A stretch of DNA of 64,000 nt from a virus (taxonomy: Duplodnaviria; Caudoviricetes): positions 32,001-96,000 of the IMG/VR virus record IMGVR_UViG_3300035520_001075; one strand, 5' to 3'. A program made the position numbers and the translations under genes. Shown one piece after another: positions 1 to 58,044 of the stretch. Under the pieces are notes generated by a model, which saw nothing but the letters and a program-made list of their open reading frames with translations, had not been told where the DNA came from and did not search any database. How positions within the stretch are numbered: position 1 is the stretch's first letter; each line of letters begins with the position of its first letter.

Positions 1-196
1 TAATAAAGCGGATAATCAGCAGCTAAATTCTTAGGTTTTGAAATAATTTTTCTAAAATTTTAAAGAAGAAGTTCAACGACTATTGGTGATGAATGTAGCC
101 AAGTAAGATTACTTTAATCTGAAATAGAAGACAGCTTTATGCTGAAGATATAGTCTACTCCCCTTAGTAAATATCGGGAAACCGAGGGTAGAAAGG
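1..196 (+). mobile_element. Group I intron TMP-I1 (5' end outside the window)
   Basis: Core motifs Q AATCAGCAGC, R GTTCAACGACTA and S AAGATATAGTCT. Terminal G at 196 is followed by exon sequence encoding IARFTEL. Confidence 0.85.
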
Positions 197-3100
197 AATA
201 GCCCGTTTTACAGAATTGTCTGAAAACGTCTCAGCAGAAGATTCTGAATTTGATGACTTAGACTACAATGATGTAGATACGGCATTAAAATCTGTAGGTA
301 TCTCATTAAAAGATGCCACAGGACAATTTAGGGATTTGGACGATGTATTTTTAGAGTTAAGCTCTAAATGGAGTACATTGGACCGTAATACCCAGCGTTA
401 TCGGATACCATTCCATTTTTTAAATGTGTTTGTATCACAAGAAAAACATTTTTAAAATATTGACTTTAATAATATTTTGTGATATAATATTATTAGTAAA
501 GGAAAATCTTTACTAAATATTATAGTTAGGAGTGATATGAAAATGGTTGAAGGAAAACCAGTTATAATTAATGGAAAGGAAACACAGTATTTTTTATTTA
601 AGAATGGAGATTTATATAATGAAAATACGCATAGAATTGCACAAGGTGCAATAAATCAAGGGTATATAAGATTTACTCTTGAAATTGATGGAGAAACTAT
701 AGGCATTTATAAACATCAATTAATGGCTCAATTATTTATTCCAAACCCTGAAAACAAACCTATTGTTCATCATAAAGATGGGTGTCCAAGAAATAATACC
801 TTAGATAATTTAGAATGGGTAAGCCAAGAAGAAAATCTTAATAAAATTATTAATCCAGTTGAACATAAAATAACTGAAAAATTAACATTAGAAGAATTAG
901 AAGAAGAAGAATGGAGACCTTTACAAAATAGTAAATACGAAGTATCAAATATGGGTAGAATTAAAAATTTACAAACTGGAAAAATAACTTTTGGTAGTAG
1001 GAATAAAAATAGTGGCTATATTAGGTGGACATATAATGATTTAAATGGAAATCGACAAGAAATTCAAGCTCATAGAGCTGTTTATATGGTTTTCCACCCA
1101 GATGAAAAAATCAATGTTATTAATCATATTGATTCTAATAGAGGTAATAATAGATTAAGTAATTTAGAGAATGTTTCTCAAAGAGAGAATGTTATAAAAA
1201 GTTATTATCAAACAAAAACAAAACAGACAAAACTAACTGGACAATATGATTTAGAGATGAATTTAATTCAAGTTTTTCCTAGTACCTCAGAAGCTGCAAA
1301 AAATATTGGATTAAACAATTGTTCAAATCTCTCTCGTGCGATGAAAACTGGCGGCATTAGCCATGGTTATTATTGGAGGGAAATTTCAAAAGCAGAATAT
1401 GATGAATTCTTAAATAAAAAATAATAAAGCTAGGTAACGTAACCCATTGAATTGCGGGAATCTCCTTTAAAATAACACAACCAAACAATTCTAAGAATTG
1501 CGGCGAAGGTAATGACTAAGGTATGGTAATATCGTGTTATTTTGGACAATCCGCAGCGAACTTATTTACTTTTTAGTGAATAAAGCGTTCAACGACTATC
1601 GAAATTATAAGTAGAGTAGATTTTTGGAAATCGAAGTAGTGGGGAGTTAGTTATTAACTCATGATATAGTCTAGCTATTATTGAAAGATAATAGAAAAAC
1701 TGATAGCAACTACTGCGGCTTGACTTTAAACGGGTCGCATAAAATCTTTTGAATTGCGGGGACATAATTAAATTTTGAAATACTAAGCAGAAGCGGCGAT
1801 GGGTAATTCCAAAGGTATAGTAAAAAGTTTCAAAATATTATAATCCGCAGCGAATTTTTCTAATAGAAAAAACGTTCAACGACTATCGAAAGCAAATTGT
1901 AAGTAGAGTAGATTTTATAGAGTCGAAGTGGAAGACACTCTAAAAGAGTGAAGATATAGTCTAATATTTATTAATATAATAAATATAGGGTTCTCGTTAA
2001 AATGCTGGCGAAGTGTACAGCCTAAAAAAACACAATTCTTTCAAATGCTGGGACATCTTAAAGCCCATTATACCACAGCACAAAGAGAAATCTTAAATGC
2101 GAAGGTTCTAAAAAATAATGGGATTTATAGGATACTATAAAATAGACAATCAGCATCCAAGCACCGCCAAGGTGAAGGTTCACAGACTTAAAAGAGAATT
2201 ACTAATAGTAAATTATATAGTCGAGCTTTATTGAAAAATAAAAGGAAGTGATTTAATATGTATAAAACAATTATGATTAATGAGTAGATAACAGAATATT
2301 TAATTTTTGATGATGGGCGTTTATTTAATAAAAAGACAAATCATTATTTAAAAGGAAGCATTAGTTCAACTGGTTATAGAACTTATTAGCTAACAGTTAA
2401 GGGCAAATACTATAATATGCTTGCTCATAGATTAGTAGCGGAATATTTTTTAGACAATAAAAATAATTTGCCTTATGTTTATCATAAGGACGGTAATCGT
2501 CTTAATAATTATAAAAATAATTTAGAATGGGTTAGCTTTTCTGAAAATTCAATAGAAGCCTATGCGGCTGGCCGCAGAACGTCTCATGCTACTAAACAAT
2601 ATATTACAGAAGAAGAATTAGCTAATAAAGAATGGAGACAAATTGAACAAACTCAATATTATGTTTCTGAGTATGGAGATGTTTATAATTCTAATACGAA
2701 AGCAAAATTAAGACCAAAGAAAGATGGCTATTTACGCTATTCAATTTTTATTGATAATGAAATTAAAATAATTCCTGCTCATATTTTAGTTTATAAAGCT
2801 TTTGTTAATAAGGAAATTCATAATGAAATAGACCATATAGATGGTAATAAACTAAATAATCACTATACCAATTTAAGAGATATATCTCATTCTGAAAATA
2901 TGATTAATGCAATGAATAATGGTCATAGAAATAAAATAGCGGTAGAGCAAATTGATGAGAATGGAAATATTGTTAAAATTTTCCCATCTATAGCTGCCGC
3001 CGCAAAAGAAATGAAATGCCAACCTGCTCTAATAAGAAGGGCAATAAAAAACAAAAACAAAACTCATAATTACTATTGGAAAAAACATATTAAATAATCT

Positions 3101-6100
3101 ACTTGCAGCAGAGTAGATTCTTAGCTTAAAATTTAAGGCTACAATATTTGAATTGCTGGAAACTCCTTAGAGCCTAATAAACTACAACATAAAAAGAAAT
3201 TTTAAGTGTGATAGTTTAAAAATTATTAGGATTGGACAATCAGCAGCCAAGCATCGTTAAGATGAAGGTTCAACGGTCATTACGTAGGAATAAGCATTCC
3301 GAAGCGGAGAATTTCTGGAAAGATAAGATATGACCTTTTCTTATAGGAAACTATAAGCCATATTGGAAAGTTATTTAGCGAATAGCTTTAAAAATAAAAG
3401 TTAATGGAAGATTACGATAGAACAGTGGAACTTGTTGAAACAGCACAAGATTCTACTGGTAAATCCTCTGAACAATTTGCAAAATATCAAGATACACTCG
3501 AAAATAAAGTTAATAAATTAAACGTTGCCTGGGAAAAATTAAGGTAGAAATTTGTTAGCTCAGATATATTTAAGGGAGCTATTGAAAGTATTACAAAACT
3601 TGTTGATAAATTAAATAGCTTTAGTATTGCGGATTTTGCAGCATTGGGAACTGTATTTGTTACACTTGGCAATACTGCTGCAGAATCTTTTTTAAATGGA
3701 TTTCGTTCTACTCTAAAAGGAGTCGGACAAATAACAACCATGATGTCAGAAAAGTTTACTTTACAAGCCTTTCCTGAATTTAGTAAAAATTCAAAAGAAA
3801 AATTACAAAAAGAACTTGAAAAAAGTAATAATTGGGTAGAAAGAGCAACATCTAATTTGGAAGCTAATAAAACAGCAAGGTCCGAAAATTATAGTCTTTT
3901 AAATTCTCTGAAACAAAAGTAGGTAAAAAATCTTGAAGAAGTTAAAAATTTGAAAAATTCTCAACTAATAAGTCTCATGCGTGGAGACAGTGATGAGGTA
4001 CTACAAAGAATTGAGAATAGTTTACAAGAAAAACAAAAAATAGGAGAACAAATAGGAGAAGATCTTCAAGCAACAGAACAAGAACAAGAGAAAATAAATT
4101 AGGCTATTGTAAAAGGAAAAAAGGATTTAGCTGAAGCAAAAGCAGACCAAAGTTTTAAGACTCAAAAACTACAAGATTCTGTAGTTGTAGATTCTACAGA
4201 ATTAGCTGAAACTGCAAAAAATTCTTTCGTTACTGCATTTACCACTGGTATTACAGTAGCTTTTGCAACTGAAAATCCTATTAAAGCAGGGCTTTCTGCG
4301 GCAGTGGCAGGGGCAGTAGCTTTCTTGCCTATTATTTTTAAAACAATAAAAACGTTAATGACAAAACAATCTTTGAGTTTGGGTCAAGCAGCTGCAAAAG
4401 CCTTTAATTCAGGATTGGGCCCTTATGCAATTATTGTCGTGGCTGTTGCTGCTGCTATAGCTGCAGTTGTAGCTGGAATAAAAAAATTACAATCAACCAT
4501 GGAAGCCAATTCTATTGGTGGCCGCATTAGTGCTCTTGAAGAAGATATTGATAATGCCACAGAATCTGCGACGAAGTTAAAAGAGGCTTTATCAAAAACA
4601 ACAGAAGAGAAAAAATCATTAGAAGAAATTAAAGAAACTTATAATGAGCTAAAAAATAAGCTAATTTTAACAGAAGAAGAGCAAGAAGAATATAATTCAA
4701 TGGTAGAGACTTTAAAAGAGAGTTATCCAGAATTAATTACTTACTATGATGAACAAAATAATAAAATTACAATTTCCAACTCTTTATTAGACGAACAAAT
4801 AGAAAAGGTTTCGGCATTACAAAAATTAGAATCTCAGCAAGTGTTAGCAGCGGATTATAAAACAGAAGGATTGCAAAATCAATATGATACGTTAAATGAA
4901 ATACTAAGCGGTTATTCTAAGTTTGGCTTTGATGCGACGTGGGCGACAGAAGATGACAATATATTTAAAGAATCTTCTTTTAATACTAACACTATAAGTA
5001 TGATTGATGAAGAAGGCTTATTAGATATTTATAATAAATATCTCAATAAAAGCACACCTGTTGTTTCAATGTCAGCGGAAGATAGGAACGCTGTTATAAA
5101 TGCAATACAATATGCCTTCTCAGGTGATTATGCTTATCTTTCAGGTATTTCAGACAATTATAAAGAAGGAGCACAAGCATTAGCTAATGCAGCAGAATCA
5201 GAAAGAGAAATCATAGATGGATTAAAGAATGACTTTGCGGAACTCTATAGCTATGCTACCGATTATTATAGTACAAACTATTCTGATATGACAGAATCTG
5301 AGCAGGATATACGAGGGGCAATTGCCGCGGCATATATTGACAAGTTAAATGATATTGTTATTTCTGATAGTACCGATATGTAGGACGTATTGACATAGGT
5401 ATCGGAAATTCTTGGAGATTCAGGGATTGTAAATTTAGATTAGTTTGAAAACCAATTTACATCAGCATATGCCAGTCTTAAAAGTGGGTGGAAAGGAGCG
5501 AATACTTTAGCTTAGAACGATGCTTCTGCTAGGTCATTATTAGCTCTTTTGGGTATTACCACAGAACAAGAATATGCTGACCTTGGTATAAAAGATTGGG
5601 GTAATGATGATATTTTAGCTTATATGAATAGTAATTTTATTCCTTTATTATCAGAACAAATAACAGAAGCTTTAGGAGAAGTAGAAATAGATAGTAATGC
5701 ATTATCTGTAGCAAATGAACTTTTTACTGACGTAAACGAGATGTCAGCAGAAGAATATGCAAATGCTAAAAACACTTTATCTGAGGCATTAACCCAATAT
5801 GATGATATTGATATAGATACTGTTTTGGGAGCTCTTTTTGATTAGACTACAATTGATAATGCCGTAGAAAGTTTACAGGCCTATAATAACACGTAGGATT
5901 TTACCATTAGTAATTACACTACAATGGCATCTGCTTTAGCTAACTTACAAGACCGTTTCGGTTCTTTAGATGCATATGCACAAGACTCTTTCCAAGATTA
6001 TATTAATTTTATTCAAGGACAAAATTTATCAAGTGATGTCGCAAATGCATTATTTAATATTGATGTTTCTTCTTTTGATGGACAAACAAGAGAAGAAATA

Positions 6101-9100
6101 AAAGAGGCAATAATTGAACTAGTATCAAATGAAGACCTCGAAGGGGCATTGGGAGAGAAAGAAGCAAAAGCTTTTGCAGAGGGCTATATTAATGAATTAG
6201 AAACAGGAGCTTTGGCGGATTTTAGCATTACTTCTGTTGTTGGTTTTGAATCTGAAATTGATGATATAAAAGAATAGGCTAAAACTATTACAGATTCAAT
6301 GTCTTCTATTACTGATGCAATTACCAATTAGGCGGAAAAAGGATACATTACCGTTAGCAATTATGCTACTTTAGCAGAACAATTAAGCAGTTTAGACTTA
6401 GATGTAGATGATTATGTTTCTGTTAATGATAATGGAGATTATAGTTTAAATGCAGAGGCTTTAAGAGATGCTTATGCAGAACAACTTAATGATAAAGAAA
6501 ACTTAGTTGAATTGGCAAAAGAAGATTTACAAAACGGTATTGATGAATTAGATATTCAAATTCAAATCCTTGAAAGTATGCTCAACGGAGTTAATGCAGA
6601 AGATGCAAAGGGAGAAGCCATTGCTCGAAACAATAGACTTTATGCGGAACAATTAGCATTATAGGCTGGTCAAGACGTTGATACTTATTTAACAAATCAT
6701 AATATAAGTTTATCTGATGCACAAAGTTCGTTAACGACTGAACAAAAGAAAATAATACAAGATCAAATTGATTCCCTGTAGGCTCAAAAAACAGATATGG
6801 AAAATAAAAAGAATAACTTAACTGAGGATGAAGCAGAAAAGATAATATCTCCTTATTTAAATGACCTTTTACGTACATATACTGAGGCTTGGGATGATGG
6901 AGTAGAAAAAGCAGAAGACGCAGAAGATATTGAAGACGCTTTAGAAGCTATTGAAGAAGCAGAGCAAGATGTAATTGATAAAACAAAAGAACTTCAAGAA
7001 GCATATCAGGGCTCAGCTTGGTATGAGAGTGCAGTGGATTAGCTGTATAATTATACTACTGCTTTGGATTATGTTGCTGATAAAATTAGTGATTTTAAAG
7101 ATACTCTTGATGATTTAAGTGCTGATGATAATATTACTGAAAATTTAAATGGATATTTAGAGAATATTAAGAAATATAATACAATTTCAGAAGCAGAGAA
7201 AAAAGTTCTTGAACAAGCTAATCAGTCAATTATTGATGGACTTGACAATACTTTAACTAAAGAATTACAGGCTCTTAGCGAAAAATATAGTGATTATAAG
7301 ATTGATACAAATGTTTCTGATTATTATACTTATGATGAATATAGCGGAACTTATATGGTTAATAGTAATGCACTGGCCGCCGCCAAGATGTCAGATACCA
7401 TTAAGAAAGAAATCGAAACACAAGTTCAGCAGTTAAATAGTAATTTAAGTTCAATAAACGATATAAATGAAAATGTAAAGAAATATGAGTAGGAATTAGA
7501 AGATTTACAAGAAACAGCATTAAACAATCAAGTTGCTCTTGAAGATGAAGTAATTTCAACCTTAAAGCAAAAGTATCAAGAAGAAATTGATAATGCTAAA
7601 GATAAATATCAAGCATTAGAAGATGCTAATGATGAATATCTTGAAGCTTTACAAGATGCAATTCAGAAAGAAAGAGATTTAAGAAGTGAACAGGATAGTT
7701 GGGACGACTTAGCTAAGAAAGAAAAGAAACTGTCTTTAATTTCAAGAGATACTTCTGGGGCAAATCAATCTGATATTCAAAGTTTACAAGATGAAATTGA
7801 TAATGATAGACAAACATTATTAGATGATACTGTCGATAATATTCTTGAAACAATGAAAGAACAATATGAAACACAGAAAGAACAAAATGATACTCAAATA
7901 GAAATTCTTGAAAATCTTCATAGCGACGAAGCAATCACAAAAGAAGCTGTAAGTCTTATCGCAAGTTGGCAAACAACAGATGATATGATATTATGGATGA
8001 CTCAAAATTCAACAGAGTATGAAACTTGGTCTGATTCTAAATATCAGCAAATGGTTGAATCTTGGGAAAAAGAATTCCTAGCAAAACAAGCAGCAGATGA
8101 AATATTATAGACAGATTTATTATCTCAGACTAAGACAGACGCGGAAGAAATTGAACAAACATATGAAGCTTATGACCAAACAGCAACAACTCAGATAACA
8201 ACTGCTATTGGAGACGATATAGATACTGTTTCTACAGAAATTAGTGATGCTAAAAAGGCTTTAGAAGAGGCACAAAAAACATTAATAGAAAAGCAAGAAG
8301 CTTATAATGAATTAATAACTAATATTGATGAAAATGTTGCAGATATAGCAAACGGAAAAACAGCGGATAATGATAATAACGATAATAAAGATAATGATAC
8401 CGTTGCAGACGAAACAGCAGCATATTATAAGGAACAATATGATAAAAATGCTAATAATCCAGCTGCTCAAAGTGCTATAATTTCAACAGCTAAAAATAAT
8501 GGATATAATTTTTCTAATGGATTTTTTTATAAATCGTCTAGTATTTAGAATAATGACGATGATACTTCTAAACTAACAGAAGCCAAGGCATTATATACAC
8601 AATATTTAGCTAATGAAGGTAATGCTAATGCACAAACACAAATTGGTAATTTAATATCTAAAACTGGTTATACTGTTGAACAAATCAAAGAAACATATAA
8701 CAATTCAGGATTATCGTTGATAAATAAAGCAACAGTTTCAAGTGAAGATGCCGTAAAAGAAGGTCAGTGGTATTCTGTAAACACAGGAACAACTAATGAA
8801 TGGACTGAATACGGACAAGTTCTATGTGCAGACACCCAAACAGAGTTAGAACAAATTATACAACTCGGCAGAAAATAGGGCTATCTTGCTAATATAGAAT
8901 TTGCTATGACCCATAAAGGAACCGATGAACCTACATACTTTTTTAAATCAGGCGGCCTTGTTGACTACACTGGTCCAGCATGGGTAGATGGTACAAAAAC
9001 CAAGCCAGAAGCTTTCCTCTCAGCATCAGACACTCAACGTATAGGAGAAGCCGCAGAACTTCTTGCTAATATTCCAATACTCAACTCAACATCAACTTCA

Positions 9101-9265
9101 GCAACCAATCTTGCCACAAATGTTGGAGATACAACAATTGAAGTTCACATTAATATAGAAGAAATCTCATCAGATTACGATGTAGATTCAATGATTGATA
9201 GAGTTAAACAAGACATTGTAGATGTTTCTAATCCAATAGGAACACAAGTAATGTTGTCGAAATAA
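197..9265 (+). CDS. Tape measure protein (5'-partial, spliced, TAG read-through)
   Basis: Exons 197-401, 1703-1720, 1989-1997, 3106-3126 and 3401-9265. The spliced product reads DTALKSVGISLKD..GQFRDLDDVFLELSSKWSTLDRNTQRY-IATTAA-GSR-QQSRFLA-LMEDYDRT. Track ORFs 3644, 4304, 5549, 5924, 6797, 7064, 7853 and 8906 share one frame broken only by TAG. The protein is coiled-coil and Ala-rich, ends GGLVDYTGPAWVDGT...TAA, and lies upstream of Dit. Confidence 0.9.
460..488 (+). promoter_or_regulatory. SigmaA-type promoter for the intron HNH gene
   Basis: TTGACT-17 nt-TATAAT with an extended -10 TG. Same consensus as the - strand early promoters. Confidence 0.8.
537..1424 (+). CDS. Intron-encoded homing endonuclease with two HNH domains and a NUMOD1-like C-terminus
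   Basis: Motifs VHHKDGCPRNNTLDNLEW and INHIDSNRGNNRLSNLE, NUMOD4-like EEWRP..YEVSNMGRIK, C-terminal F.S..EAA. RBS GGAG. No internal TAG. Confidence 0.88.
   Translation: MKMVEGKPVIINGKETQYFLFKNGDLYNENTHRIAQGAINQGYIRFTLEIDGETIGIYKHQLMAQLFIPNPENKPIVHHKDGCPRNNTLDNLEWVSQEENLNKIINPVEHKITEKLTLEELEEEEWRPLQNSKYEVSNMGRIKNLQTGKITFGSRNKNSGYIRWTYNDLNGNRQEIQAHRAVYMVFHPDEKINVINHIDSNRGNNRLSNLENVSQRENVIKSYYQTKTKQTKLTGQYDLEMNLIQVFPSTSEAAKNIGLNNCSNLSRAMKTGGISHGYYWREISKAEYDEFLNKK
1721..1988 (+). mobile_element. Group I intron TMP-I3 (no ORF, 268 nt)
   Basis: P1: exon GCGGCT pairs with GGTCGC. Core AATTGCGGG, AATCCGCAGC, GTTCAACGACTA, AAGATATAGTCT. Terminal G at 1988. Confidence 0.88.
1998..3105 (+). mobile_element. 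Group I intron TMP-I4 with an HNH gene in the P9 region
   Basis: IGS TGCTG-GCGA: P10 TGCTG pairs with 3' exon CAGCA. Core AAATGCTGG, AATCAGCA, GTTCACAGACT, ATTATATAGTC. Terminal G at 3105. Confidence 0.85.
2258..3097 (+). CDS. Intron-encoded double-HNH homing endonuclease with two in-frame TAG codons
   Basis: RBS AAAGGAAGTG precedes ATG 2258, in frame with track ORF 2417. The N-terminus MYKTIMINE*ITEYLIFDDGRLFN..GYRTY*LTVKGK aligns with the N-terminus of the 537..1424 paralogue. Two HNH motifs. Confidence 0.82.
3127..3400 (+). mobile_element. Group I intron TMP-I5 (no ORF, 274 nt)
   Basis: P1: exon TAGCT pairs with GGCTA. P10 TTAA pairs with exon TTAA. R GTTCAACGGTCA and S AAGATATGACCT show a compensated P7. 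Terminal G at 3400. Confidence 0.88.
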
Positions 9266-9320
9266 AGAGAAGATTGAGAGTTCTCTATGAGGACTCTCAT
9301 CTTCCTATAGATGAGGTGAA

Positions 9321-12104
9321 ATGATGAGACAGATAAAGGATTTTGTTGGCTTTAGATTTGGTAATGTCCATTCAAGTGAACTTAATTTATTAGTAGTATC
9401 TTCCAGTGATAGATATGAAAAGAATTTACTTCCAGACCCAACAGATTATACAACTGAAATCCCAGGTTCAGATGGAACTTATTACTTTGGACAAACCTAC
9501 AAAGACAGAACTTTTACTGTTAATGTTGCTTTTGATAGAGTAAGTGAACCAATCTTTAGAAAAATTTCTTAGTTATTTGCTAATGATAAACTTCAAGATT
9601 TAGTCTTCGATGAAATGCCTTTTAAAACTTACAAAGCAAAAATTAAATCTAATCCAGACTTTAAATTCATTTGTTTTACAGATAGAGATACTGGAGAACG
9701 AGTTTATAAAGGAGAAGGAACTTTAGTATTTATTTGCTATTTTCCTTATGCTTTTGGTTTTAATAAGTACGTTGTAAGAGCGGCAGACTTCTATAAGTGT
9801 GCTCAGCCGAAAGACATTATTATTAACAAACTTGAAGATAATCCATATAGAAAAAAGAAAAAGCCAAAGTTTTGGCCTGCTATTATAAAAGACCATTATA
9901 ATGTTGAATATAATATGAGAACTCCTTGGAAGGGCGGCTACCCTACAATAGAACAAGTTCAATGGGGAGAACTTTATTTTAAAGGCCCAGAAGATTCTGA
10001 GAAAAAAATGATTATTGATGTGCGTAATTATTGGAAGAATATCCCAGAATGGCAGGGAACAGCAAAGTTATTAACAACTCCTACTCTTGATTATGACCAA
10101 GAATTGATTTTTGCACCGCAGTTTTCAAAGTGCAAGTTTATTAATATGGACACTGGTTATTATACTGAAAATGATATGATGGGTAGTAGAATTTTAGTTT
10201 ATAATCCAGGTGATTTACCAATTGAATTTGAATTAAAAATGGAAGAGAATAAAAGAACTTTCTGGTCTTCAAGAATGGGCAATGGTTTTAGAATTAGTCG
10301 CTTTAATGTTGAAAGATTATCTATTGAACAAGCAGTAGATTGGACTGGATTAACAACATTAGAACAAGTAGATGATAAACCTTATAAATATGGTAATAGA
10401 TATTTTAAGTTAGACGATAGCGAACCAGATGATACAGAGCTTTTAAAAAATATTGATGAGTATACTAATAAGAATTGGTTGGAAGAAGACATTCTTATGG
10501 AAGAAGGAGATACTCATAATTATGGCTATTATGATAGAGAAGGTAATGAAGTTATTACAGACGTGATAGTAGATGGAAAAGAGGGTAATACTGCTTACAC
10601 AACTCCTAATGGGGCGGCCGCTAAAGAAATTGCATATAATTTACATTTAAAAGAATATCAAGATTCATTATATAATTTTATTGACGAAAAAACCGAATAT
10701 CGTTTATTAAAAGCAGCCCACCCTCATCACACTTATATTGCTGAGCCAATTCCTCGCCAAAAGCTTGGACACTATATCAAATTATTCTATTGGCAGTCAG
10801 AACAGCAGTTTAAAGATAACTCAAAAAAATTAGCAAACCTTTATCCACAGTTAAAGTTTGAAGATGGAATTAAGATTGCAAATAGATATGATGAGTTAAG
10901 AAGTCTTTGTATAAATGAAGATGAAGAATATGAGTTATATTGGGAAACTTTGAAAATGGCCATTCTTGATAAATACAAGGATTGTAATGTTTTTTCTGAG
11001 AAAACTTCTACATATTATGATTCAACTTATACTTATGAAGATTTTGTAGAGAGCTTCTTATATCACCCAATGGAATTTATTACAGTCGATACAGATAAGG
11101 AACTTGATTATGGTCAAGATACTTTAAATATCTATAATTATCCTCAATGGATTACAGAAGATTACTTAGAAATCGACCCATCAGCACTTGCTTATGATGA
11201 GGATTATAGAACTTATAATAAAACCGAAAATATGCCAGATGCACTTTTCCTTGACACAGAAGAAAGAATTCTTTTTGAGAATCAAAATCCAGATGACTTT
11301 TATAAATATAAACCTACTAAAATACTTTACAATGATTCTATTAAAAAAGGAAAATGGTTTAAGTTGCCGCCAGGTTGGAGCTTAATAGCAATTGAACCTA
11401 TTTCTGATGAGGAATATTGGGGTGGAAAACGTTGGTTAGATGCAAGACCTTTTGATTGGGGCTATGGCGGTGATGAGAATCGGAATCCACGAGAAGTTCA
11501 ACAGTTATTTGATGGCGTATATGATTATTGTGTTAATAAATTTCTCAAAAACTCAGAAGATGAGGGAACTTATTATAAAGAAGAAGCTTTTAGTCGAGAT
11601 AACGTAAATACATGGTTGGCAAAAGGCTATAATAATGGACTTTTTGATTTAAACGGTGGAAAGAATTCTCCAGCAGAAAAATCGTATATTAATAATGATA
11701 ATCAGCCAGTGTTAGACATAAATACACTTGATGATGAAGATAGAATGAAGATTAGGAATTGGTTCTTCTATTATAAGGAACAAGCGAAGTCAAAAAATGA
11801 TACGTTTGCTTATCAGCTCTATTGTAAAAGAGAAACACAAGCAGAATACTCTTTCTTAAAATTATTATATCGAGTTTGGAATAAAATTTCCCCTTACTAT
11901 TCTTGGACTGCAGGAAAAGGCGTTTTTGAAGATGGAGAAGATTTGGACGATAGCGGCCGCCCTAAGAGATGTATCAATGCTCATATCTCAGATTGGTGGT
12001 ATTATGCTTGCAACTATATGTGGGCAAATTTCCCTCCTTTGTATTGGGGACTTGCAGATTTATTAAACGGATTACAAATTAAATATGTTCCACTATTTTA
12101 TTAA
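9321..12104 (+). CDS. Distal tail protein (Dit-like) with a large insertion, about 927 aa
   Basis: Track ORFs 9321 and 9615 join through TAG 9570-9572. Dit-like N-terminus (F.FG...S..L, IPGSDG.YY, LVFDEMPFK.Y.AK). Directly follows the tape measure gene. Confidence 0.75.
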
Positions 12105-12115
12105 GAGGTGAGAAA

Positions 12116-15100: not shown

Positions 15101-15508
15101 ATAGTTTTTGACTCAATTACTCAGAATACCTATTCATCTACAATTACAGATGGTATTCAAATTAATACTGCAACAAGTATAACAACAACAGCAGTAGAAC
15201 CTAAATATTGCGACGGAGATTCGATTAAATTAGTTCCTATTACGTCATATACTACTTCAGAAACTTTTAGAAATGCAATTCACTATGATTACACTACAGA
15301 AACTTTCACAAGTATTCCAACAAGTTTTTCATGGAATGATGATTATCTTTTAAGCTCTTCTGGAGCGTGGACAGGGACGACTTCTACAACTTCTCCATTG
15401 GTTGATGGAACTTTTCTTAAGAATACAACTAATTCTGGTAGCATTGCCTATTTAGTTTTTGTAAATGGAGAATGTCAAGGAATTATTTACTTAGAAGGAA
15501 CAGAATAA
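12116..15508 (+). CDS. Tail/baseplate hub (Tal-like) protein, N-terminal part, about 1130 aa
   Basis: ORFs 12116, 12725 and 13838 share one frame joined by TAG codons (12644, 12671, 13154). The N-terminus KLKREIKGTNTLTFQM..KIKL..WFEFFVKKI resembles prophage tail proteins. Ends in TAA. Confidence 0.7.
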
Positions 15509-15522
15509 GGAGGTGAGATTAA

Positions 15523-21153: not shown

Positions 21154-21166
21154 TAAATTAAAAAAT

Positions 21167-21195
21167 AAAATGGGTACATATTGTGCCCATTTTTT
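21167..21195 (+). terminator. Intrinsic terminator
   Basis: AAAATGGGTAC-ATATT-GTGCCCATTTT followed by a T-tract. Confidence 0.6.
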
Positions 21196-21210
21196 ATAGA
21201 GGTGAATTTT

Positions 21211-28730: not shown

Positions 28731-28744
28731 TTACTCCCTCCTTT

Positions 28745-42369: not shown

Positions 42370-42401
42370 AATTTTATCACCCTTTCTCATTTACTATAAT
42401 A

Positions 42402-43795: not shown

Positions 43796-45013
43796 TTAGA
43801 ATAATTCCTTTATCAAGATAAGAGTTTCTTTTAGCTTGTCAATATCTTCTGGCTTAATTTCTGAAAACTTTGTTGGTTTTCCAAAAACTTCTGCTAAAAT
43901 TCTCTGAGCCTCCTCTATCTTTTCATTTACAACAGCTTTATTCCATAATTCTTTTGCTTCTGTCATTAATTCGTCAAAATCCTGAACTAAATATGGATTT
44001 TTATCTTCTGAACTTTCACCGCCGCTATGAGCAACTTCTTCATCAATTGCGTCATGAATAGCATTAACAAAAGCATCATAATCCAATTCAATTTTTGGTG
44101 CTATATATTTAAAACGAGATTTACAAAGGAAACGCTCATCTCCCCTAAAGAACATATAACGTTTTCTTTCAATCTTATCTCCAATTTCAGTTGAGATTTC
44201 TCTTATATAACCAATTATATCAACCATTTTATTAATTAAATTAAATGGTCGATTCGGAAGAGCAGGAATTATTTTTGAGTATTCCTGACCTTTATCATCA
44301 GTGTAGGTTTTTTCTGTTTCATGAGAAATAAATACTATACCATAACCAGCATAAGTTAAATCTCTAAAAGGAGTTATGAAATTATCATCAAGCATCTTAT
44401 ATCCACCGCCATATGCCGCAATATCTCGTACTTGCTCAACTCCTGCTTGAGAACAAGTCCATTTCTCACAAAGCTTAAAAGCTTCATCAACAGTATCAAT
44501 AACTAATACGTTGAATTTTTCCTGCAATTCTGGCTTTTTAATTAACTGAGAAGCCATCTGTCGCCAATCCTGCCATGTTTTAACTGGCTGGACATAGATA
44601 TTATTTAAGGCGTTTGTCCTTTCTACCGTTCCTTTCGGAATACTTTAACACCCCTTAAGGGTCGGAGTAGACTATATCTTCTTCATTTTATTAATGAAGC
44701 GTAATATTTCAAAATAATTAATATTTTTACTTCCTAATGGAATAGTCGTTGAACCTTTCACTGGTTAAGTGATTTGGCTGCTGATTACCATATTAATTAA
44801 TTTAGGCTTTCCAGCAATTAATTACGTTATTCAATATATATTACTATATAAGGGAGCTACCAATTAACCCTGCTCGAATCCGCATATAAGTGCTTTGTCG
44901 AACTTCGATGCGAATGTTGTTTTTCCGCATCCAGGCTGTCCATAAATAAGAGAAAACTTCCCTCTTAAATCTCTACTAATTTTCTGTGGCTCTAAATTAA
45001 GTAAATCTATCAT
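43796..45013 (-). CDS. AAA_24/Sak4-like ATPase (spliced, 322 aa)
   Basis: Exon 45013-44867 has Walker A GQPGCGKTT and ends FEQG. Exon 44617-43796 begins TNALNN and has LVIDTVD, FISHE and CKSRF. Adjacent to an SSB-like gene. Confidence 0.82.
44618..44866 (-). mobile_element. Group I intron in the AAA ATPase gene (no ORF, 249 nt)
   Basis: Core AATTGCTGG, AATCAGCAGCC, GTTCAACGACTA and AAGATATAGTCT. Terminal G at 44618. Confidence 0.87.
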
Positions 45014-46939: not shown

Positions 46940-49900
46940 TCACTCCTTTATTAAATCAATAGCAAAATCTCCCTCACCTAAATCAATACCCTTAACTCCA
47001 ACGGCTGTTCTTGATAAAGGTCTTAATTCAGAAGTTGAAAATTTAATGCATTTCTTATTTACTATAATAATTATATCACAATCTGTTGAAATAGCCAAGC
47101 ACTTTATTATTTTATCATTGTCTTTTACATCAGATATTCGCTTACCTTTAATTCCTCGATTACAAGTTGGAAAATCATTAAGACTTGCTTTTTTAATTAT
47201 TCCTTCTTTTGAGAGGGTTATTAGATATTTGTCTGTTTCTTCAACTAAATGAGCATCAATTATAAAATCGTTCGTAGCCAAATTCATTGCTTTTACACCA
47301 GCGGCCACTCTGCCAATAGCATTAATTTCTGTTGAGTTAATTATTATATAGTTGCCATTATTAGATAATATTCCCATTCGTTCGTTATCTAAAAATAGAA
47401 CTTTTACAACTTCATCATCTTCTTTGAGATTAATTGCTTTGATAGACTTTCCTCTACGAATATTATATTCTTTCGCCTCGGTTTTCTTTATTAAGCCTTT
47501 TTTAGTTAGGAATACATAATATTTCTTAGAGTCTTTCTTATTAAATGATGTAATTGCAGTTGGGCGTTCATCACCATTAAAGTCAAATAATTGATTTATA
47601 TTAATTCTACCATTAATTGGCAAATCGTCTATTGAAAGATGATACATTTGACCTTTATTGGAGAATACTAATAGAGAATTAAAGTTGTCATCTCTAATTG
47701 TTTTAATAATTGCTTCATTATTAGCTAACTTAATTTTCTTACCTGAGCCGCCACGTTTTGAAGTTAAAAGAGTTGTAGTTTCTTGGGTGTAGATATTACC
47801 AAGATTTGTATAGTGGATTAAGAGCTCTTTCTTTTCAATTGGTTCTGCATCTTCTTCTTCGGAAGTAAAGTCGAGATTTATGCATTTGGTTTTTCTTTCA
47901 TCTCCATATTTATTTTTAATTCTTAAAATTTCGTCTATAACAATTTTTTTAAATTTATTCTCATTTGTAAGAATAATATTAATATCATTAATATTATTAT
48001 TCAATTCAGCTCTTTCATCAATTAATTTTTGTAATTCTAAATTAGCAAGTCTTGAAAGTTTTAAATTTAAAATTGCTTGACTTTGCTCTTCTGATAAATT
48101 AAAATTTTCTTGTAATTTTATTTTTGCAAGAGATGTTGAAGGGGATGACTTAATAATTTTAACTACTTCCTCAATATTCTGAATAGCGATAATCAATCCA
48201 TCTACAATATGAAGTCTTTGTTTTAATTTCTTTAAGTCAAATTCATATGATTTTCTAAGGACGTTGCAAAGATGTTCCAAGTATGTTTCCATCATTTCTT
48301 TCCATGTAAAACACTTAGGATATTTCCCATCCGCGAGCATATTCATATTGATTCCATAGCTACCCTGTAGTAAAGTGTGCTTATATAATAATTTAGTAAT
48401 TCTGTTTACATTAGCGTTCTTTGATAATTTTATAACTATTTTTACTCCGTCAAGGTCTGTTCCGTCAAATACGCTTTCAATACCATAAATTTTCCCTTCA
48501 TCTATTGCATTCTGTATAGAAACTGTAGCATTAGAAGAAAATACCATATAAGGAAGATTGGTTGCTATTAATTCATTTGCATCTTCATCATATACCATAT
48601 CTGCTCTAATAATAGCAGCCTTTCCAGTTCCTCTTTTATGACTTTCTTTAACTTCTTCGGAATTAATTATAGTTCCTCCTGTCGGAAAATCAATTGGACA
48701 GTAAATTTCATCAAAATCAATCTCAGGATTATTTAATAATTTTATTAAAGCATCTGAAACCTCATTTAAATTATGAGAAGGAATAGAAGAAGCTAAACTT
48801 ACTCCAATTCCAAAGTTTCCATTCACTAAACTATTTGGAAAAGTTGTTGGGAAATAAGTTGGATATTCTTCTTCTTCCGTATAATTAAGTTTCCATTTAT
48901 CAATAGTTTCCTTTTGTAGCAAATTCGTCATTTCATCTGCAATTTCGCCGCTTCTCATCTCAAGATATCTATCTGCTGCATAATCATTGTTGTGCATTAA
49001 ACTGCCATTATTTCCATGAGTATCAATTAAAGGATAACGCAAAGAAAAGTCTTGACTCATTCTTACAGCATTTCCATAAATACTTGCATCCATATTATTC
49101 CCACATTTCTGTAGGTATCGACTATATCTTATCTATAAAATAGAAATACCCATTTCAGAGAAAATAGTTCTCTTACTCCTTCGTTCCAAGGATAGTCTGT
49201 ACAGGTTTTAATTTATTTCTTTATAGGTTTTTCTTGTTAGCATTTGCCTAAAAGCACTATAAGAGCATTGTATATTATATTTATCATAAAGTATTTTTGA
49301 CTGATGTCCATTATTGTTATACTCTTCTCGATACTGCTTGACTTCATCATCTGAGAATATTCTTCTAGCCCCTTTTTGCTTAAAAACTCTAATTGGATAG
49401 GACATATTCTCGTGCTTATAAGTAATACCATGATTAATTTCAGAAATAGCATTAAAGCAAATATTATATCTTTTAGCTATCTCTCTATCACTTAAAATAT
49501 TTTCTTTTAATAATTTATATATTTCTAATACTTGCTCTTCTGATAACTTTGCCCGAGAAGCTTTTTCTCCTCTGGCAACTTTGCAAACTTTTTTCACCGT
49601 ATTATATAACAAATTTTTATCATATTTATTAATTTCCTCTTGCTCTTTTTCTTCCAGTTCAGAAAGTTTACATTCACAGAGAATTTCAAAAGTAAAATTA
49701 TCAATACCAAAAGTATACATATCATTATATAATTTATTAATTCTTTTATCATTATAAGTTTTACCAAATCTAAAATGATATTCTTTTCTATCTTCTATAT
49801 GAGAAGAGCTTCCTATGTAAACCATATTATTTAAAAGATTAGTTATTTTATAAATTCCAACCATTTTTTCACCTCCTTTATTTTAGTACAAAAAAGAAAT

Positions 49901-50235
49901 AAATTAATTCCCACGGGATTAGCATAGAAACCCTTAGCTTTCCCCGTTAGCTTTTACACCCTCATTACTGAGAAAAGGTATAACAGGCAATATTATTTAC
50001 CATGTGGACTGAACATCATTGCTGCTGATTTTGTAGCTGTGGCTTTTCTTCTTTTGTTCTTAAAAGTATTCTTATTTTTATACTGAGCGTATAAAATAAA
50101 ACGTGCTCCTGTTTTTAATCCATCTCTTGCATCTGGTAATGCTCTTGTTTGAATTACATACGATGCATAAGGAACATAAAAATTAGGAAGAGCATCAGAT
50201 ACTTCTAATTCTCCATCTATAACAATTTCTCTCAT
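46940..50235 (-). CDS. gyrA: Type IIA topoisomerase subunit A (gyrase A-like; spliced, 795 aa)
   Basis: RALPDARDGLK in exon 50235-49999, joining exon 49090-46940 as SPHG|DASIY. Catalytic AADRY, PDF-like IDFPTGG, and C-terminal beta-pinwheel repeats. Confidence 0.9.
49091..49998 (-). mobile_element. Group I intron in gyrA carrying a GIY-YIG gene
   Basis: GCTAACGGGG...AATCCCGTGGG before the ORF, GTACAGACTA and AAGATATAGTC after it. Terminal G at 49091. Removal restores PHGD. Confidence 0.85.
49208..49864 (-). CDS. GIY-YIG homing endonuclease (intron-encoded)
   Basis: MVGIYKITNLLNNMVYIGSS and LYN motifs, with a C-terminal HTH. RBS AAGGAGG. Confidence 0.88.
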   Translation of the reverse strand: MVGIYKITNLLNNMVYIGSSSHIEDRKEYHFRFGKTYNDKRINKLYNDMYTFGIDNFTFEILCECKLSELEEKEQEEINKYDKNLLYNTVKKVCKVARGEKASRAKLSEEQVLEIYKLLKENILSDREIAKRYNICFNAISEINHGITYKHENMSYPIRVFKQKGARRIFSDDEVKQYREEYNNNGHQSKILYDKYNIQCSYSAFRQMLTRKTYKEIN

Positions 50236-50297: not shown

Positions 50298-52393
50298 TTA
50301 ATCAAGGGCATCAAAGTCTGCATTTTTACTAATATATTTTTTACGTTCTTCAATATTTTCTCCGAGCAATACATCAAAATAATAATTTGCTTTTTCCGCA
50401 TCTTCAAAACTAAAAGGAATATATCTGCCTTTTTCTGAGAAAAGTGTATTCTTAAAATCTTCTGGTTCAAGCTCACCAATTCCTTTTGCTCTTAAAATAT
50501 CACCATCTGGCAATGATTCAAGTTCTTTTTCTGTATACGCATAATAAATTTTATTCTGCTTAGTGGTGACTTTAAACAATGGTGTTTGTCCCCAAAATAT
50601 CTTTTTTTGTCTTAATAATTCTGGATAATATTTATACATAAAAGCCAGTAGCAAACACATGATTGAGTAACCATCTTCGTCTGCGTCGCATACAAAGACA
50701 ATTCTTCCATATCTCATTTTTTTCATATTAAAATTATGATTAAAGCCTGCTCCAATAGCAGTATGAAGATTTTTTAAAACTTCATTTGAGAATTGCTCAT
50801 CTTCTGTACTTTTTAATACATTAAGGATTTTACCAGTTAATGGAAAGGCGGCTGTATAATCACTATTTCTTGATTTTACTATGCCTCCAAGGGCTGACAA
50901 TCCCTCCACTACGATTAGTTGAGATTTTTCATCATGATATCTACAGTCAGCAAGTTTACCAGCTAAAACAGTCTTCTTTCTTAATTCTTTACTGATTTCA
51001 CTATCTTGCTTTAAAGCATTTTCTCTTGCTCTATCCGCTGCTTTTTCAGCCTTCTCAAATCTACTCATCATCTCAATAATATTACTACATTCTGGAATTC
51101 TTGAAAATTCTTCTAAGCCCTCTTTTAGAGCTTTAGTCGTTAGAGTTCCTAAAGAAGGATTTAAAATATTATTTTTTGTTTGATTAGAAAATGAAGGCTC
51201 TCTAACCTTACAATTAATAGCATAAACCAATCCTCGTCTTATTGATTCTGGAGAAAAAGATTGATTACTAATTTTCTTAATTGAATTTGTAAAAGTTCTT
51301 TTTGCCGCAGTTATAGGAGAGCCGCCAGAGCAACAATAGAGTCCATTTGCAAAAACATAACTATTTTCTGTTCCACCTGTCCAAAGAAAAGCAACTTCTA
51401 CTTCATCAATTCCATCAGTAGCGGAACAAATAATTGGCTTTTTCATTAAAGGCTTCTTTGCAATATCTACTATGAAATCTGCAATTCCATGTTCTGAATA
51501 GAATTCTTTTTTCTTTATTTCTTTATTATTATCATCAACTGCAGTAATATTAAAATAAATACCTTTATTGAGATAAGCAATGTTCTTAATTTCATCACAA
51601 ATTCTATCAAAAGAAAAATTCTCTGTGGTATTAATAAAGACTTCACTATCTGGTTTAAAAGTAATTGTAGTACCAGTTGGAAGAGTTGTTGACTCTTCTT
51701 TATATTCCATTAGTATACCTTGTTTAAATTTTGCTGTCGCCGCCGTCCCATCTCGTCTACTTTGAACAGTAAACTCATAAGAAGACATACAAACAGCTGT
51801 TCCTCCAATCTTACTATTCAGCAATACTCATTAATTTATTGCTCGTTAATAACCGCTTATAGTTTCCTATAAGAATAGACTATATCTTCTGTGGATTCTT
51901 TTTCGAGTTATTTAACTCTACTCTACTTTGATATTATTGATATCATTTCGATAGTCGTTGAACATTCCCCAACTTGTTATTACAGGGGCTTTGCTGCTGA
52001 TTCTCTTTTAAGAGTTCCAGCAATTAAAAATCTTTTATAACGGCTATGGTATTAACCGTTTAAACCACTACTATTTTTATAAGAATTTTTATCAAATTTA
52101 CCGCCAGTATGGGCTTCTGTAAAAATAGCAACAAGAGTATTATGTCCATTTTCGCAAGAGAATGGAATTCCACGTCCTTCATCTGTTATGCTAACATATC
52201 CGCTATTTTCATTAATCTGGATATCAATTTTATTTCCATATCCAGCCAAAGCTTCATCAGTAGAGTTATTAATAATTTCTTTTAAAGCTTGATACATTCC
52301 TTCTAAATCTGCACTGCCTAAATACATAGGAATCTTTTCTCGCATTGCTTCACGAGTATCAAGATGTCTAATACTATCTGCATTATAACTCAA
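50298..52393 (-). CDS. gyrB: Type IIA topoisomerase subunit B (gyrase B-like; spliced, 616 aa)
   Basis: EIINNSTDE, DEGRGIP and HTGGKF in exon 52393-52055, joining exon 51809-50298 as SGLNG|IGG. TOPRIM motifs VEGLSA, PLTGKILN and DADEDG. Confidence 0.9.
51810..52054 (-). mobile_element. Group I intron in gyrB (no ORF, 245 nt)
   Basis: P1: exon AACGGT pairs with GCCGTT. Core AATTGCTGG, AATCAGCAGC, GTTCAACGACTA and AAGATATAGTCT. Terminal G at 51810. Confidence 0.87.
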
Positions 52394-53986: not shown

Positions 53987-54202
53987 TTTAATTTCCTCCT
54001 TAGTTTTTATTTTATTATATCATATTTTAAATAAAAAATTAAGTTATTTTATTATATTCCTCTTTATAATTTTTTAATTTATTAAAAACTCTACTTTTGT
54101 CTGTCTTTATGAATTGTGATATACGTAGGACTAACATTCCTTAAATCTTTTTTTTAAAAATTAAGTAAAAGATATATAATCTTTTACTATCTTTTTTATT
54201 GA

Positions 54203-54553: not shown

Positions 54554-54621
54554 TTCAGTTTCCTCCTTAGTTTTTATTATACTAATATTATATCATAACT
54601 TTAATAAAAAGTCAAATATTA

Positions 54622-55038: not shown

Positions 55039-55040
55039 TT

Positions 55041-58000
55041 TTAATTTTCCTCAAAATTTAAATGTTTACATCTAAAATAAACGTCTTCTGACCTTCCTCT
55101 ATTCGGCGTGTAATTACTAATATCATTACTACCCTCAGTTTCCCGATATTTATTAGGGTTTAGACTATACCTTCATTATTATAATAATGTCGCTATTATA
55201 GTCGTTGAACGTCTCTCCTTTTCTTAAAAAGGAGATTTCGCTGCGTTTGGTTATCCAATCCTTAATGATTTTACTATACCAATCCCATTACTGATTGCCA
55301 TTATAATATTACTATTATAATTTAGTTATTAAGGCTCTAAGGACTTTCCCGCAGTTTAAGCGATTTAAAGTGACCTATTAGTTAAGCCACATATTCTATA
55401 GCTTGTTCTAACTTTTTCTGGGTCTTTTTCTCCACATTTTGGACATTGCCAGCGAATAGTTCCATCTTCCACCAAAATCTTCTTAAAATCATACCCTTCA
55501 AAGCCACAGGTCTTGCAGGAAGAAATTTCTGAGTTAATTTCTGAATATAAACAATTTTCTCCAATAAAATTAATTATTTGTAAAATTCCTTCGATATTAT
55601 TGCTCATATTAGGAACTTCCACATATGAGATTGAACCCGATGTGGTTTTATCGCTAAATTGTTCTTCATCTAAAAGTTTTGTAAAAGCATCTACTTTATC
55701 TCTTACGTGATGATGATAAGAATTAGTAAGAAAATGACTCTGAGTTCCATCGCCAATTTGACCAAAATTCTTAATACAAGCTTCTGCAAAATCATCTGTT
55801 GTTGATTCCATCATTTAATACCCTCGGTTTCCCGATATTTATTAAGGGGATTAGACTATATCTTCTTCCTTTAAAAAGGAAGCTCTACATTTCGATTTTT
55901 TGATATTATCTCATCTACATTTCGCCCTATTATTAAGCCTACTCGGTTCAGTTTTATAACTGCCTTTCCCTAGTCGTTAGACTTTTATTATTTTACTTAT
56001 TTACTTGATACTTTTAAAATTCTATTTTGTCATTTTATTTTTACTTCTTTTTTTTGTATTATTAATCATAAATAAGTAAAATAAATTTAGTACGGTATTA
56101 CCTCTATCCAAAGGACTTAGGCTCTCTTACCAGCTTATTATTAGTATTCAGCTATGACCGTTTAGTAGAGTTCGCATTAACAATTACTCATTAATGCCCC
56201 ATGTATATCTAGGAGTCCCATATAATCCTGCGGCAAGACCTGTTGTGGCTGTCAACTCGTCGTTCCTCTGATTCATATAATCAATAATTTTATGAGCTAA
56301 TTTATTACCTTTTTCACCGAATTGGTCTTCATCACAAATATAATAAACAGCTTCTCGCAGGCCCGCATAGCCCAAAGAAATTGAAAAATATTGATTATAC
56401 ACATATTTTTCAAGAGTCTCTTCTGGGTCAAGTCTTAGAATTCCGCCGTAAACAAAATGAAGAGGATTATCTTTTGCTTTTATTTTAGCTATATGATTAG
56501 CTCTCCATAACATATCTCTTTGAGCAATGTCAATATAATGAGATAAATTTTCAAATAATATTTTTTCGTCTTTATTAGGATTATTTTCCATTGCAATATA
56601 CGGAAGATTTAATGTCTGAACGCCGAGGTTTCCACGTCCAAAAACCACGTAATTACCATCTTCGTCTTGCCATGGATTTAACATACTTCTACACGTATTA
56701 TCCTTTATCGCTAAAGGTACTGACTATATTATCTATCACTTTTGATAGTCTTCTGCTTCGAGAAAAATCTCTACTCGGCTACATTCATCACCGATAGTCG
56801 ATACACCTATTAATTGGCACGGTCTCAACAATTAATGCCCTAACCGTTTTCAAAAGATTTTAAATGGGCTATAGTATTCGCTTACCCATTGGACAAGTTG
56901 GAACTTTTTTAAGCTCTCTATGTTTTTTAACACTTAAATAATCTGGAACTAATCTTTTAGCGCTACATTCTGCACAAAGCTTAGTAGTATTATAATATTT
57001 TCCGCCTTCCATAGTATTTTTATCAAGAAAATATAGAATTTTTGGAAAATTAGGATTTAAATAAGTTCCATCTTCTTGTCGCATTCCCTGTATTCTTTGT
57101 CTAATCATTTCTTCAAAAACAAGAATTAAATCTTCAGAATATTCTTCATCTTCACTAAGCCAACAACCAACACTTAAAAAGGCCGCCTGACCAGTTCCCG
57201 AACAAAGAGTATTTGTTTGATACAAGAATGTTTGAATTCCATCTTTAATTTCTTTCTTTAGTCTTTTTTCAGTAATTCTATTAATATCTTTTTCATTAGC
57301 AATTCCAACAGATTCTAACTCTTCAGCGACTTCTTTTTTAATTTTTTCTCTGCTAACACGAACAAATTTTGCTAAATGAAGTAAATTAATCGTTATACCT
57401 CCATATTGCGAGCTTGTTGCATGGGTCAGAGCCTGACTTGCTACTGTACAAGCTGTTTTAAAAGATTTTGGAGTTTCAATATAAATTCCATTAATATTAC
57501 AACCTTTAAACATCTCTTCTAAATTCCAATTGCAGCAGTTAAACATGGCTCGGGCACTATAAGAAAAATCATGGAATTTAACCACGCATCTATCATGAGC
57601 ATCTAAACAATCTTTTGGTAGTAATTTTCTCATCATTTCTTTACTTGGAATTTCCGCAAGATAGGCATTTTTAATATGAACTAAATGAGGATTTTTATTA
57701 CCATTTTCATGCTCAATTTCTGGATTAACATAAAGAACTTTCTCAATTTCTGTGGGGTTCTTTATTGCTCTCTCCTTATCCATCTTATAAGCACTATATT
57801 CTCTTGCTACATCTGGAACTTCACTATAGAGAACGCTCATAACAAAATTTTCAATTCTTTCAACTTCAATTTCATCCTTCTTATTATTTTTGGCTTCTTT
57901 CTGTACCAAAATGTTAACTACATTAACCAAATCATTAATTTTATTAAAGTCTGGATAACCAATCTGATTCCAAGCTTGAGTTATTGCGTGCTGAATTTTA

Positions 58001-58044
58001 GTATCATCATAATCAAATTTTCCAGTTTTCTTTATTACTATCAT
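55041..58044 (-). CDS. nrdD: Anaerobic ribonucleoside-triphosphate reductase (spliced, 717 aa)
   Basis: ATP-cone N-terminus, NCC and SSQYGG. Exons 58044-56884, 56693-56211, 55811-55385 and 55123-55041 give PMG|CRS, YGTP|MES and the glycyl-radical motif RICG-Y-IS (split within the Tyr codon). Confidence 0.92.
55124..55384 (-). mobile_element. Group I intron nrdD-I3 (no ORF, 261 nt)
   Basis: P1: exon GTGGCT pairs with GGTCAC. R GTTCAACGACTA and S AAGGTATAGTCT. Terminal G at 55124. Confidence 0.87.
55812..56210 (-). mobile_element. Group I intron nrdD-I2 (399 nt)
   Basis: P10 CAT pairs with exon ATG. R GTCTAACGACTA and S AAGATATAGTCT. Terminal G at 55812. Confidence 0.83.
56694..56883 (-). mobile_element. 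Group I intron nrdD-I1 (no ORF, only 190 nt)
   Basis: P1: exon ATGGGT pairs with GCCCAT. R GTATCGACTA and S AATATAGTCAG. Terminal G at 56694. Removal restores MG|CRS. Confidence 0.85.

Follow-up and report, generated by a model that had tools for sequence, protein, structure and literature searches.

The 169-kb genome of phage T4 contains three introns, each of them in a nucleotide-metabolism gene. In Staphylococcus phage Twort, one structural (tail) gene, orf142, contains three introns with an IA2 ribozyme, and exon skipping has been reported (PMC11878797). In the Bastillevirinae, 45 introns are distributed over 26 invaded genomes and four gene families, with a maximum of six per genome; some of these splice only in vivo, exon skipping occurs, and the DNA polymerase gene of Bacillus phage SIOphi is spliced in vivo (PMC11878797). 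The jumbo gut (Jug) phages, with genomes of 360–402 kb, average 18.5 group I introns, and their terL, nrdD and DNA polymerase genes are split (PMC12880540). Here, we analyzed a stretch of 64,000 nucleotides (the window) from a virus of the Caudoviricetes, bases 32001–96000 of the 157,483-bp record IMGVR_UViG_3300035520_001075, which has direct terminal repeats and is estimated to be 100% complete. In this window, seven genes are interrupted by 14 gaps with the anatomy of group I introns.

Predicted introns and their host genes

The gaps are found in the tape measure gene (five), dnaE (one), recJ (two), an AAA_24 (Sak4-like) ATPase gene (one), gyrA (one), gyrB (one) and nrdD (three). We consider it very probable that all 14 are genuine phage IA-type group I introns, which are removed from the transcripts of their host genes. 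They sum to 7.2 kb, or 11% of the window (one per 4.6 kb). The whole genome has at least 19 such introns in eight genes, equating to one per 8 kb, and approximately 7% of it is predicted to be self-splicing RNA. A preliminary description of this DNA, made from the sequence alone, had claimed 14 introns with the same counts in the same genes. Each of these was found, and the insertion motifs that it gave all match the junctions of our spliced models.

In all 14 cases, the 5′ exon ends in a U that pairs with the G opening the P1 helix, and the intron ends in a G. P1 is formed from 4–8 bp and lies 6–14 nucleotides (nt) into the intron or, in tape measure intron i1, just upstream of the core. The spliced models are all in frame and without an internal stop. 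Pfam profile coordinates continue from piece to piece over every gap (using stop-to-stop frames for the minus-strand genes). The nrdD pieces match the NRDD profile at positions 1–265, 263–414 and 416–542, the gyrA pieces match DNA_topoisoIV at 1–49 and 50–431, and the ATPase pieces match AAA_24 at 6–33 and 34–195. The gyrB pieces match HATPase_c and then DNA_gyraseB, the dnaE pieces match DNA_pol3_alpha with the finger domain and then HHH_6, and in recJ the DHH profile begins at position 12.

We compared the spliced protein models to related IMG/VR contigs (numbered with an L). Uninterrupted alleles, colinear with the models, were found for 13 of the 14 sites, the exception being gyrA, and these intron-less alleles fix 13 of the 14 predicted junctions. 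The core of the tape measure gene is uninterrupted in L050, L053 and L055 (80–84% identity), where 196 aligned residues cover all nine of its junctions with no gap at any. The dnaE junction is uninterrupted in eight contigs, reading SYAFAKPHGLAYSF or a variant differing by one or two residues, while in other contigs dnaE is interrupted at the same place or within three codons of it. Uninterrupted recJ occurs in L021 (86% identity), L022 and L023, and both nrdD and gyrB are uninterrupted in L029. L027, which is 99% identical at the DNA level, also lacks the gyrB intron; the absence falls precisely between window bases 52055 and 51809, with one synonymous difference on each side. The ATPase site FEQG|TNAL is continuous in L027 and L029. 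At the gyrA site, L027 and L029 both have a gap, 908 nt long in the former and 239 nt long in the latter. The survey of the same sites in related phages had been proposed in the preliminary description, and these alleles are its outcome.

The tape measure gene runs on the plus strand from genome position 26914 to window position 9265, and has nine predicted introns: four upstream of the window, one across its start and four inside. Its internal exons are 121, 83, 12, 17, 205, 18, 9 and 21 nt in length. Intron i0 begins 77 nt upstream of the window and ends at G196 (1–196, the 3′ 196 nt); its P1 is AGACCAU/GUGGUCU, and the full copy scores 57.1 bits against RF00028, the group I intron covariance model of Rfam. 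The 205-nt exon A (197–401) belongs to PF10145 (PhageMin_Tail), with the piece 192–401 matching profile positions 151–191, and is colinear with the intron-less relatives. Intron i1 (402–1702; 54 bits at 1399–1693) has its open reading frame (ORF) within the P1 loop, and a guide, GUAACGU, just upstream of the core pairs with exon GCGUUAU. There follow micro-exon B (1703–1720, 18 nt, IATTAA), the ORF-less 268-nt intron i2 (1721–1988; 69.8 bits, P1 UGCGGCU/GGUCGCA), micro-exon C (1989–1997, 9 nt, GSR), intron i3 (1998–3105; 46.7 bits at 1985–2243, E-value 1e-8), micro-exon D (3106–3126, 21 nt, QQSRFLA), the 274-nt intron i4 (3127–3400; 32.5 bits, E-value 2e-4) and exon E (3401–9265). The spliced core reads ...NTQRY|IATTAA|GSR|QQSRFLA|LMEDYD..., and the equivalent in phage Perkons is AY-VATTIA-GTY-QQSRFLN-LMEGY, without a gap. 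In the intron-less relatives, the three micro-exons correspond to IATIAA (also ungapped), GSR and QQSRFIA at the same places.

The three micro-exons (window 1703–3126) are all multiples of three and the four surrounding introns lie between codons, such that an in-frame product would survive the skipping of any one of them. At genome 28432–28470 and window 1709–1740, introns u1 and i2 are each preceded by the exon hexamer GCGGCU and have essentially the same guide, GGUCGC; the two introns are otherwise not especially similar. Two of the four upstream introns have ORFs (GIY-YIG-like by motif; Cys-rich). Outside the window, five further group I introns are predicted at genome positions 16243–16600, 28444–28862, 28984–30081, 30165–31617 and 31630–31905. 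The last four are those of the tape measure gene. The intron at around 16.3 kb is in a plus-strand gene and scores 58.8 bits; a Pfam search of the gene hosting this intron (genome 16.2 kb) gave no match.

The other nine introns of the window are in minus-strand genes, and interrupt catalytic or otherwise conserved motifs. In nrdD, intron 1 (56694–56883, 190 nt, P1 AAUGGGU/GCCCAUU) splits CPMG|CRS at the equivalent of T4 NrdD G289|C290, intron 2 (55812–56210, 399 nt with an AT-rich insert) splits GTP|MES near T4 residue 445, and intron 3 (55124–55384, 261 nt) splits RICG|Y at T4 G580, one base past the Gly codon, between the first and second bases of the Tyr codon. We take T4 C290 to be the thiyl-radical cysteine and G580 the glycyl-radical residue. 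Intron 3 has P1 GUGGCU/GGUCAC and, by eye, P10 UAUUAG/CUAAUA. The gyrB intron (51810–52054, 245 nt; 66.1 bits) lies at GLNG|IGG, equivalent to E. coli G117|V118 and presumably in the ATP lid, and the gyrA intron (49091–49998, 908 nt) at PHG|DAS, equivalent to E. coli G81|D82 and adjoining Ser83. In recJ, intron 1 (38379–38673, 295 nt; 45.1 bits, E-value 2e-11) and intron 2 (37650–37950, 301 nt; 29.6 bits, E-value 8e-7) split DCD|VDG and ALGI|ISD, presumably motifs I and IV of the DHH family. The ATPase intron (44618–44866, 249 nt; 75.3 bits) is at FEQG|TNAL. The dnaE intron (30137–31339, 1203 nt) has P1 AACCU/GGGUU, a terminal G and R/S elements GTATCGACTAT / AATAGTC, and splits AKP|HGLAYSF, which we take to be the FNKSH-type finger motif. 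Searching the PDB with the end of dnaE exon 1 gave too weak a result for this junction to be placed.

Endonuclease ORFs are present in exactly four of the 14 introns, as the preliminary description had stated. Two are HNH ORFs, at 537–1424 in i1 (Pfam HNH_3 with NUMOD4/1) and at 2258–3097 in i3 (HNH_3, matched with TAG read as sense), and two are GIY-YIG ORFs, at 49208–49864 in the gyrA intron and at 30281–31186 in the dnaE intron, the latter with a helix-turn-helix (HTH) match in Pfam. The i3 ORF contains two in-frame TAG codons, and none occurs in the i1 ORF or in either GIY-YIG ORF; the predicted i3 endonuclease would therefore be producible only after TAG decoding begins. The plus-strand late genes of the window (3401–22317) are likewise open only when TAG is read as sense, with their real ends at TAA. 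Tape measure exon E contains 18 in-frame TAG codons, and the four genes that follow it contain 1, 3, 5 and 3. At the few conserved TAG positions that could be aligned, the relatives mostly have Gln, and two relatives have TAG at the same places. The replication genes have almost no in-frame TAG codons.

The window has a G+C content of approximately 30%. Its tail genes (tape measure, Sipho_tail protein and tail lysin, by Pfam) occupy 1–25 kb on the plus strand, and its replication genes 25–64 kb on the minus strand. A megablast search of the window against known deposited phages revealed no close relative and only short intron-core matches, and tblastn searches with GyrA among deposited phages gave at most 36% identity. 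Two further minus-strand ORFs, each between unrelated genes, resemble free-standing genes of mobile elements: a GIY-YIG ORF at 62509–63057, and an ORF at 41680–42390, between phoH and dnaB, whose product has an HTH of the resolvase type and matches NUMOD1 weakly. The approximately 950 nt upstream of the DNA ligase gene (61000–61950) have no long open frame on either strand, and no match to Rfam or to our intron profile.

Covariance model, profile and core fold

We scored the gaps against RF00028, which has a curated cut-off of 50 bits. Six of the 14 reach this value (the ATPase intron, i2, gyrB, i0, nrdD intron 3 at 56 bits, and i1), and five are significant below it (i3, recJ intron 1, i4, recJ intron 2, and the 3′ part of the gyrA intron at 27.7 bits, E-value 1e-4). 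A plain Rfam scan of the whole window matched just six gaps, of which three were over the cut-off, and scanning pieces of 8–9 kb added nothing, with eight gaps still missed. We re-ran RF00028 on pre-selected candidates (gyrB and the two recJ introns) and on short excerpts (nrdD intron 3 and the gyrA 3′ part). The gyrB intron, which had no match under the speed filters, scored 66 bits when the filters were bypassed, and nrdD intron 3 reached its 56 bits when scanned alone. Since these scores appear on candidates and excerpts, the eight misses in the plain scans are largely filter losses rather than absence. IA-type phage introns, on which this model and its filters are known to perform poorly, escape RF00028 when the speed filters are on. 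Failure of covariance models, which had been offered in the preliminary description as a refutation, is not valid as one, and would have wrongly rejected eight introns.

A nucleotide profile (nhmmer) of 11 Rfam-supported copies detected nrdD intron 3 (E-value 5e-24), the 3′ halves of nrdD introns 1 (3e-8) and 2 (2e-7) and, more weakly, the gyrA intron (0.01), and recJ intron 2 resembles the 5′ part of the gyrA intron (nhmmer, 4e-5). All nine minus-strand gaps contain P, Q, R and S elements recognizable by eye, AATTGCGGGAA, AATCCGCAGC, GTTCAACGACTAT and AAGATATAGTC or close variants. Over both strands, we counted 28 occurrences of the paired R/S core motif, compared with 9.4 expected from shuffled sequences; the motif is readable on both strands, so each core is counted twice. 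The clean GTTCAACGACTAT...AAGATATAGTC type is found within intron gaps only.

The core helices show strong covariation. We aligned 11 paralogues, seven of them inside the window (alignment A2), and RNAalifold recovered P3, P4, P5, P6 and P8 from this alignment, to which P7 was added as a pseudoknot. Across these helices, P7 included, 94% of the cells are paired, compared with 37–48% when the 3′ partners are slid by 1–3 columns. Compensatory changes occur in 24 of 33 pairs, a level matched by none of 500 shuffles. In i4, P7 is GGUCA/UGACC versus GACUA/UAGUC in other copies, which is a triple compensatory change. The seven window introns outside the alignment have their P/Q/R/S elements assigned by eye. 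The 3′ strand of P3 lies approximately 60 columns past the 5′ strand of P7, with hairpins in between. This predicted P7-to-P3′ layout is that of type IA (P7.1/P7.2), and may be IA2-like. Extra helices between P7 and P3′ are also found in the Twort and T4 td introns.

Predicted splicing, alternative explanations and strain turnover

We infer the splicing of each intron inside the infected cell from its anatomy, covariation, in-frame junctions and intron-less alleles. Each intron would be transcribed inside its host gene, fold, and excise through two guanosine-started transesterifications, with the 5′ cut after the U paired to G in P1 and the 3′ cut after the terminal G. Ligation would then give one open frame each for the tape measure protein, DnaE, RecJ, the AAA_24 ATPase, GyrA, GyrB and NrdD. 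As DnaE, GyrA, GyrB, RecJ, NrdD and the ATPase are unreadable when unspliced, it can be soundly inferred that replication depends on splicing. The four endonuclease-bearing introns could spread via double-strand-break repair. The ten ORF-less introns would persist through clean splicing; their gain, loss or movement may come about through recombination with related phages, possibly also through reverse splicing. The most conserved codons may be favored as sites because such sequences are common to related phages and cannot mutate away.

Several observations weigh against the splicing of all 14 as group I introns. Against RF00028, short excerpts of nrdD intron 1 and of the dnaE intron gave no match, and nrdD intron 2 gave 13.6 bits, which is not significant. 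For the dnaE intron, the one significant sequence match among the other copies is over 50 nt of the gyrA intron (E-value 7e-5), and single-sequence nhmmer searches with its halves returned only the self-match. The assignment of the dnaE intron comes from motifs, P1, the terminal G, the presence/absence pattern and one P4 that covaries by eye (CGAG/CUCG in dnaE, CGGU/ACCG in recJ intron 2 and CGGGG/CCCG in gyrA). P1 is only 4 bp in i3, nrdD intron 2, the ATPase intron and recJ intron 1, and there was no intron-less gyrA allele among the close relatives examined. Furthermore, some phage introns splice only with cell factors (PMC11878797), and "self-splicing" may fail for some of those here. Together with the ten introns that lack an ORF, the three without a significant RF00028 score and the several short P1 helices are what might be expected if some of the 14 are decayed, being non-splicing or only protein-aided, and their host genes dead or of low output; in the Bastillevirinae, four of eight spliced genes were spliced only in infected cells (PMC11878797). 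We judge such decay to be improbable: no core has lost P7, its terminal G or its U-G pair, every spliced frame is intact, and the interruptions fall in replication and tail genes that are essential, in a record estimated to be complete, with terminal repeats. Independent contigs that are near-identical also have the same introns without change, which speaks for functional selection.

The variation in intron content between related strains, at several sites, makes a mixed population plausible, and the high count could then be an artefact of metagenome assembly, in which a consensus mixes intron-plus alleles of co-occurring strains. This we hold to be very improbable: contigs with other metagenome numbers have seven of the nine minus-strand introns at the same sites, with 98–99% nucleotide identity outside the intron differences, the intron flanks join without breaks, and the introns are mutually 68–81% identical over long stretches and are therefore not collapsed repeats. 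Lower still is the probability, which we consider negligible, that the gaps are other insertions, such as inteins, group II introns, gene-splitting free-standing endonucleases or translational bypass elements. T4-like phages are known to have split genes whose two polypeptides function together, and the GIY-YIG ORF at 62509–63057 is a free-standing, endonuclease-like neighbor. However, group I core elements lie on both sides of both intron-borne GIY-YIG ORFs. Inteins are ruled out by stops in all frames within the gaps and by the change of frame, group II introns by the ORF-less gaps of 190–400 nt, which are too small, and split polypeptides by the exons of 9–21 nt, which cannot encode separate proteins.

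The group I introns appear to turn over between strains. Relative to this genome, the near-identical strain lacks the gyrB intron and has a third recJ interruption of 254 nt at residue 429 (L024 3127–3382), an extra dnaE interruption of around 815 nt near residue 455 (L031 1800–2616) and a 1.09-kb insertion in dnaB (L027 18065–19157; around window 41010). Its ATPase intron is not at FEQG|T but within the codons for Walker A, at GQPG|CGKT (L027 14165–14406). At least five intron sites differ between strains that are 99% identical elsewhere. The two ATPase sites are 63 nt apart, the Walker A site being upstream, in flanking DNA that is 98–99% identical. The two intron copies are 83–89% identical, with a common guide, UAGCUC, and a common 3′ end, and both follow GGGU. 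We tentatively raise the possibility, on balance doubtful, that ORF-less introns of this phage lineage reach new sites by reverse splicing, guided only by the short guide sequence. The shifted ATPase intron, the guide and hexamer shared by u1 and i2, and the strain differences are hints of such a process, which could explain nine introns in one gene.

Comparison with known intron systems

These predictions suggest that a phage can tolerate a heavy intron load in indispensable genes: the polymerase, both gyrase subunits, the anaerobic ribonucleotide reductase nrdD (three introns) and a tail gene (nine). Phage intron hosts would now extend past the nucleotide-metabolism, polymerase and terminase genes named previously (PMC11878797). 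The intron-plus, -minus and -moved alleles in near-identical strains form a natural series for the spread of ORF-less introns, and introns separated by 9 nt could serve the study of splicing order and exon skipping. Standard gene callers combined with a filtered Rfam scan would annotate most of these genes as fragments.

Twort, a phage whose hosts are low-G+C Gram-positive bacteria, provides a close parallel: its genome has several group I introns, and a single tail gene holds several of them. It differs in having three introns in that gene, compared to nine here, where exons are as short as 9 nt and where the hosts include the tape measure, RecJ, gyrase, DnaE and Sak4-like ATPase genes. The Bastillevirinae introns (e.g. 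SIOphi DNA polymerase, terminase) are similar in their IA-like cores and in HNH or GIY-YIG ORFs placed in loops, and the nrdD intron cores are approximately 88% identical, in three pieces, to a SIOphi DNA polymerase intron. In contrast to the Bastillevirinae, at least 19 introns in eight genes occur here in one genome. The comparison with T4 that was made in the preliminary description understates the known range, as Jug phages average 18.5 introns per genome (PMC12880540). The high count is therefore not unprecedented, whereas the density is higher here, at one intron per 8 kb genome-wide compared to about one per 20 kb in Jug phages, which also differ in their host genes and for which an array of tiny exons has not been reported.

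In the literature searched, we found no earlier case of an intron hosted by a tape measure, recJ, gyrase or Sak4-like gene, which is absence of evidence only; the earlier view of RecJ, the Sak4-like ATPase and the tape measure as unusual hosts is consistent with this. The gyrA and dnaE introns presumably resemble T4 td/I-TevI in having a GIY-YIG ORF between P4-P6 and P7, and P4 strands of the AACGGGGAA / CCCGUG type. Many group I introns crowded into a conserved core, with very short exons, are also seen in fungal mitochondrial cox1, although that is an organelle gene, in which splicing is usually maturase-dependent. Thus, the kind of element is known, while its density, its host genes and its strain-level turnover are unusual.

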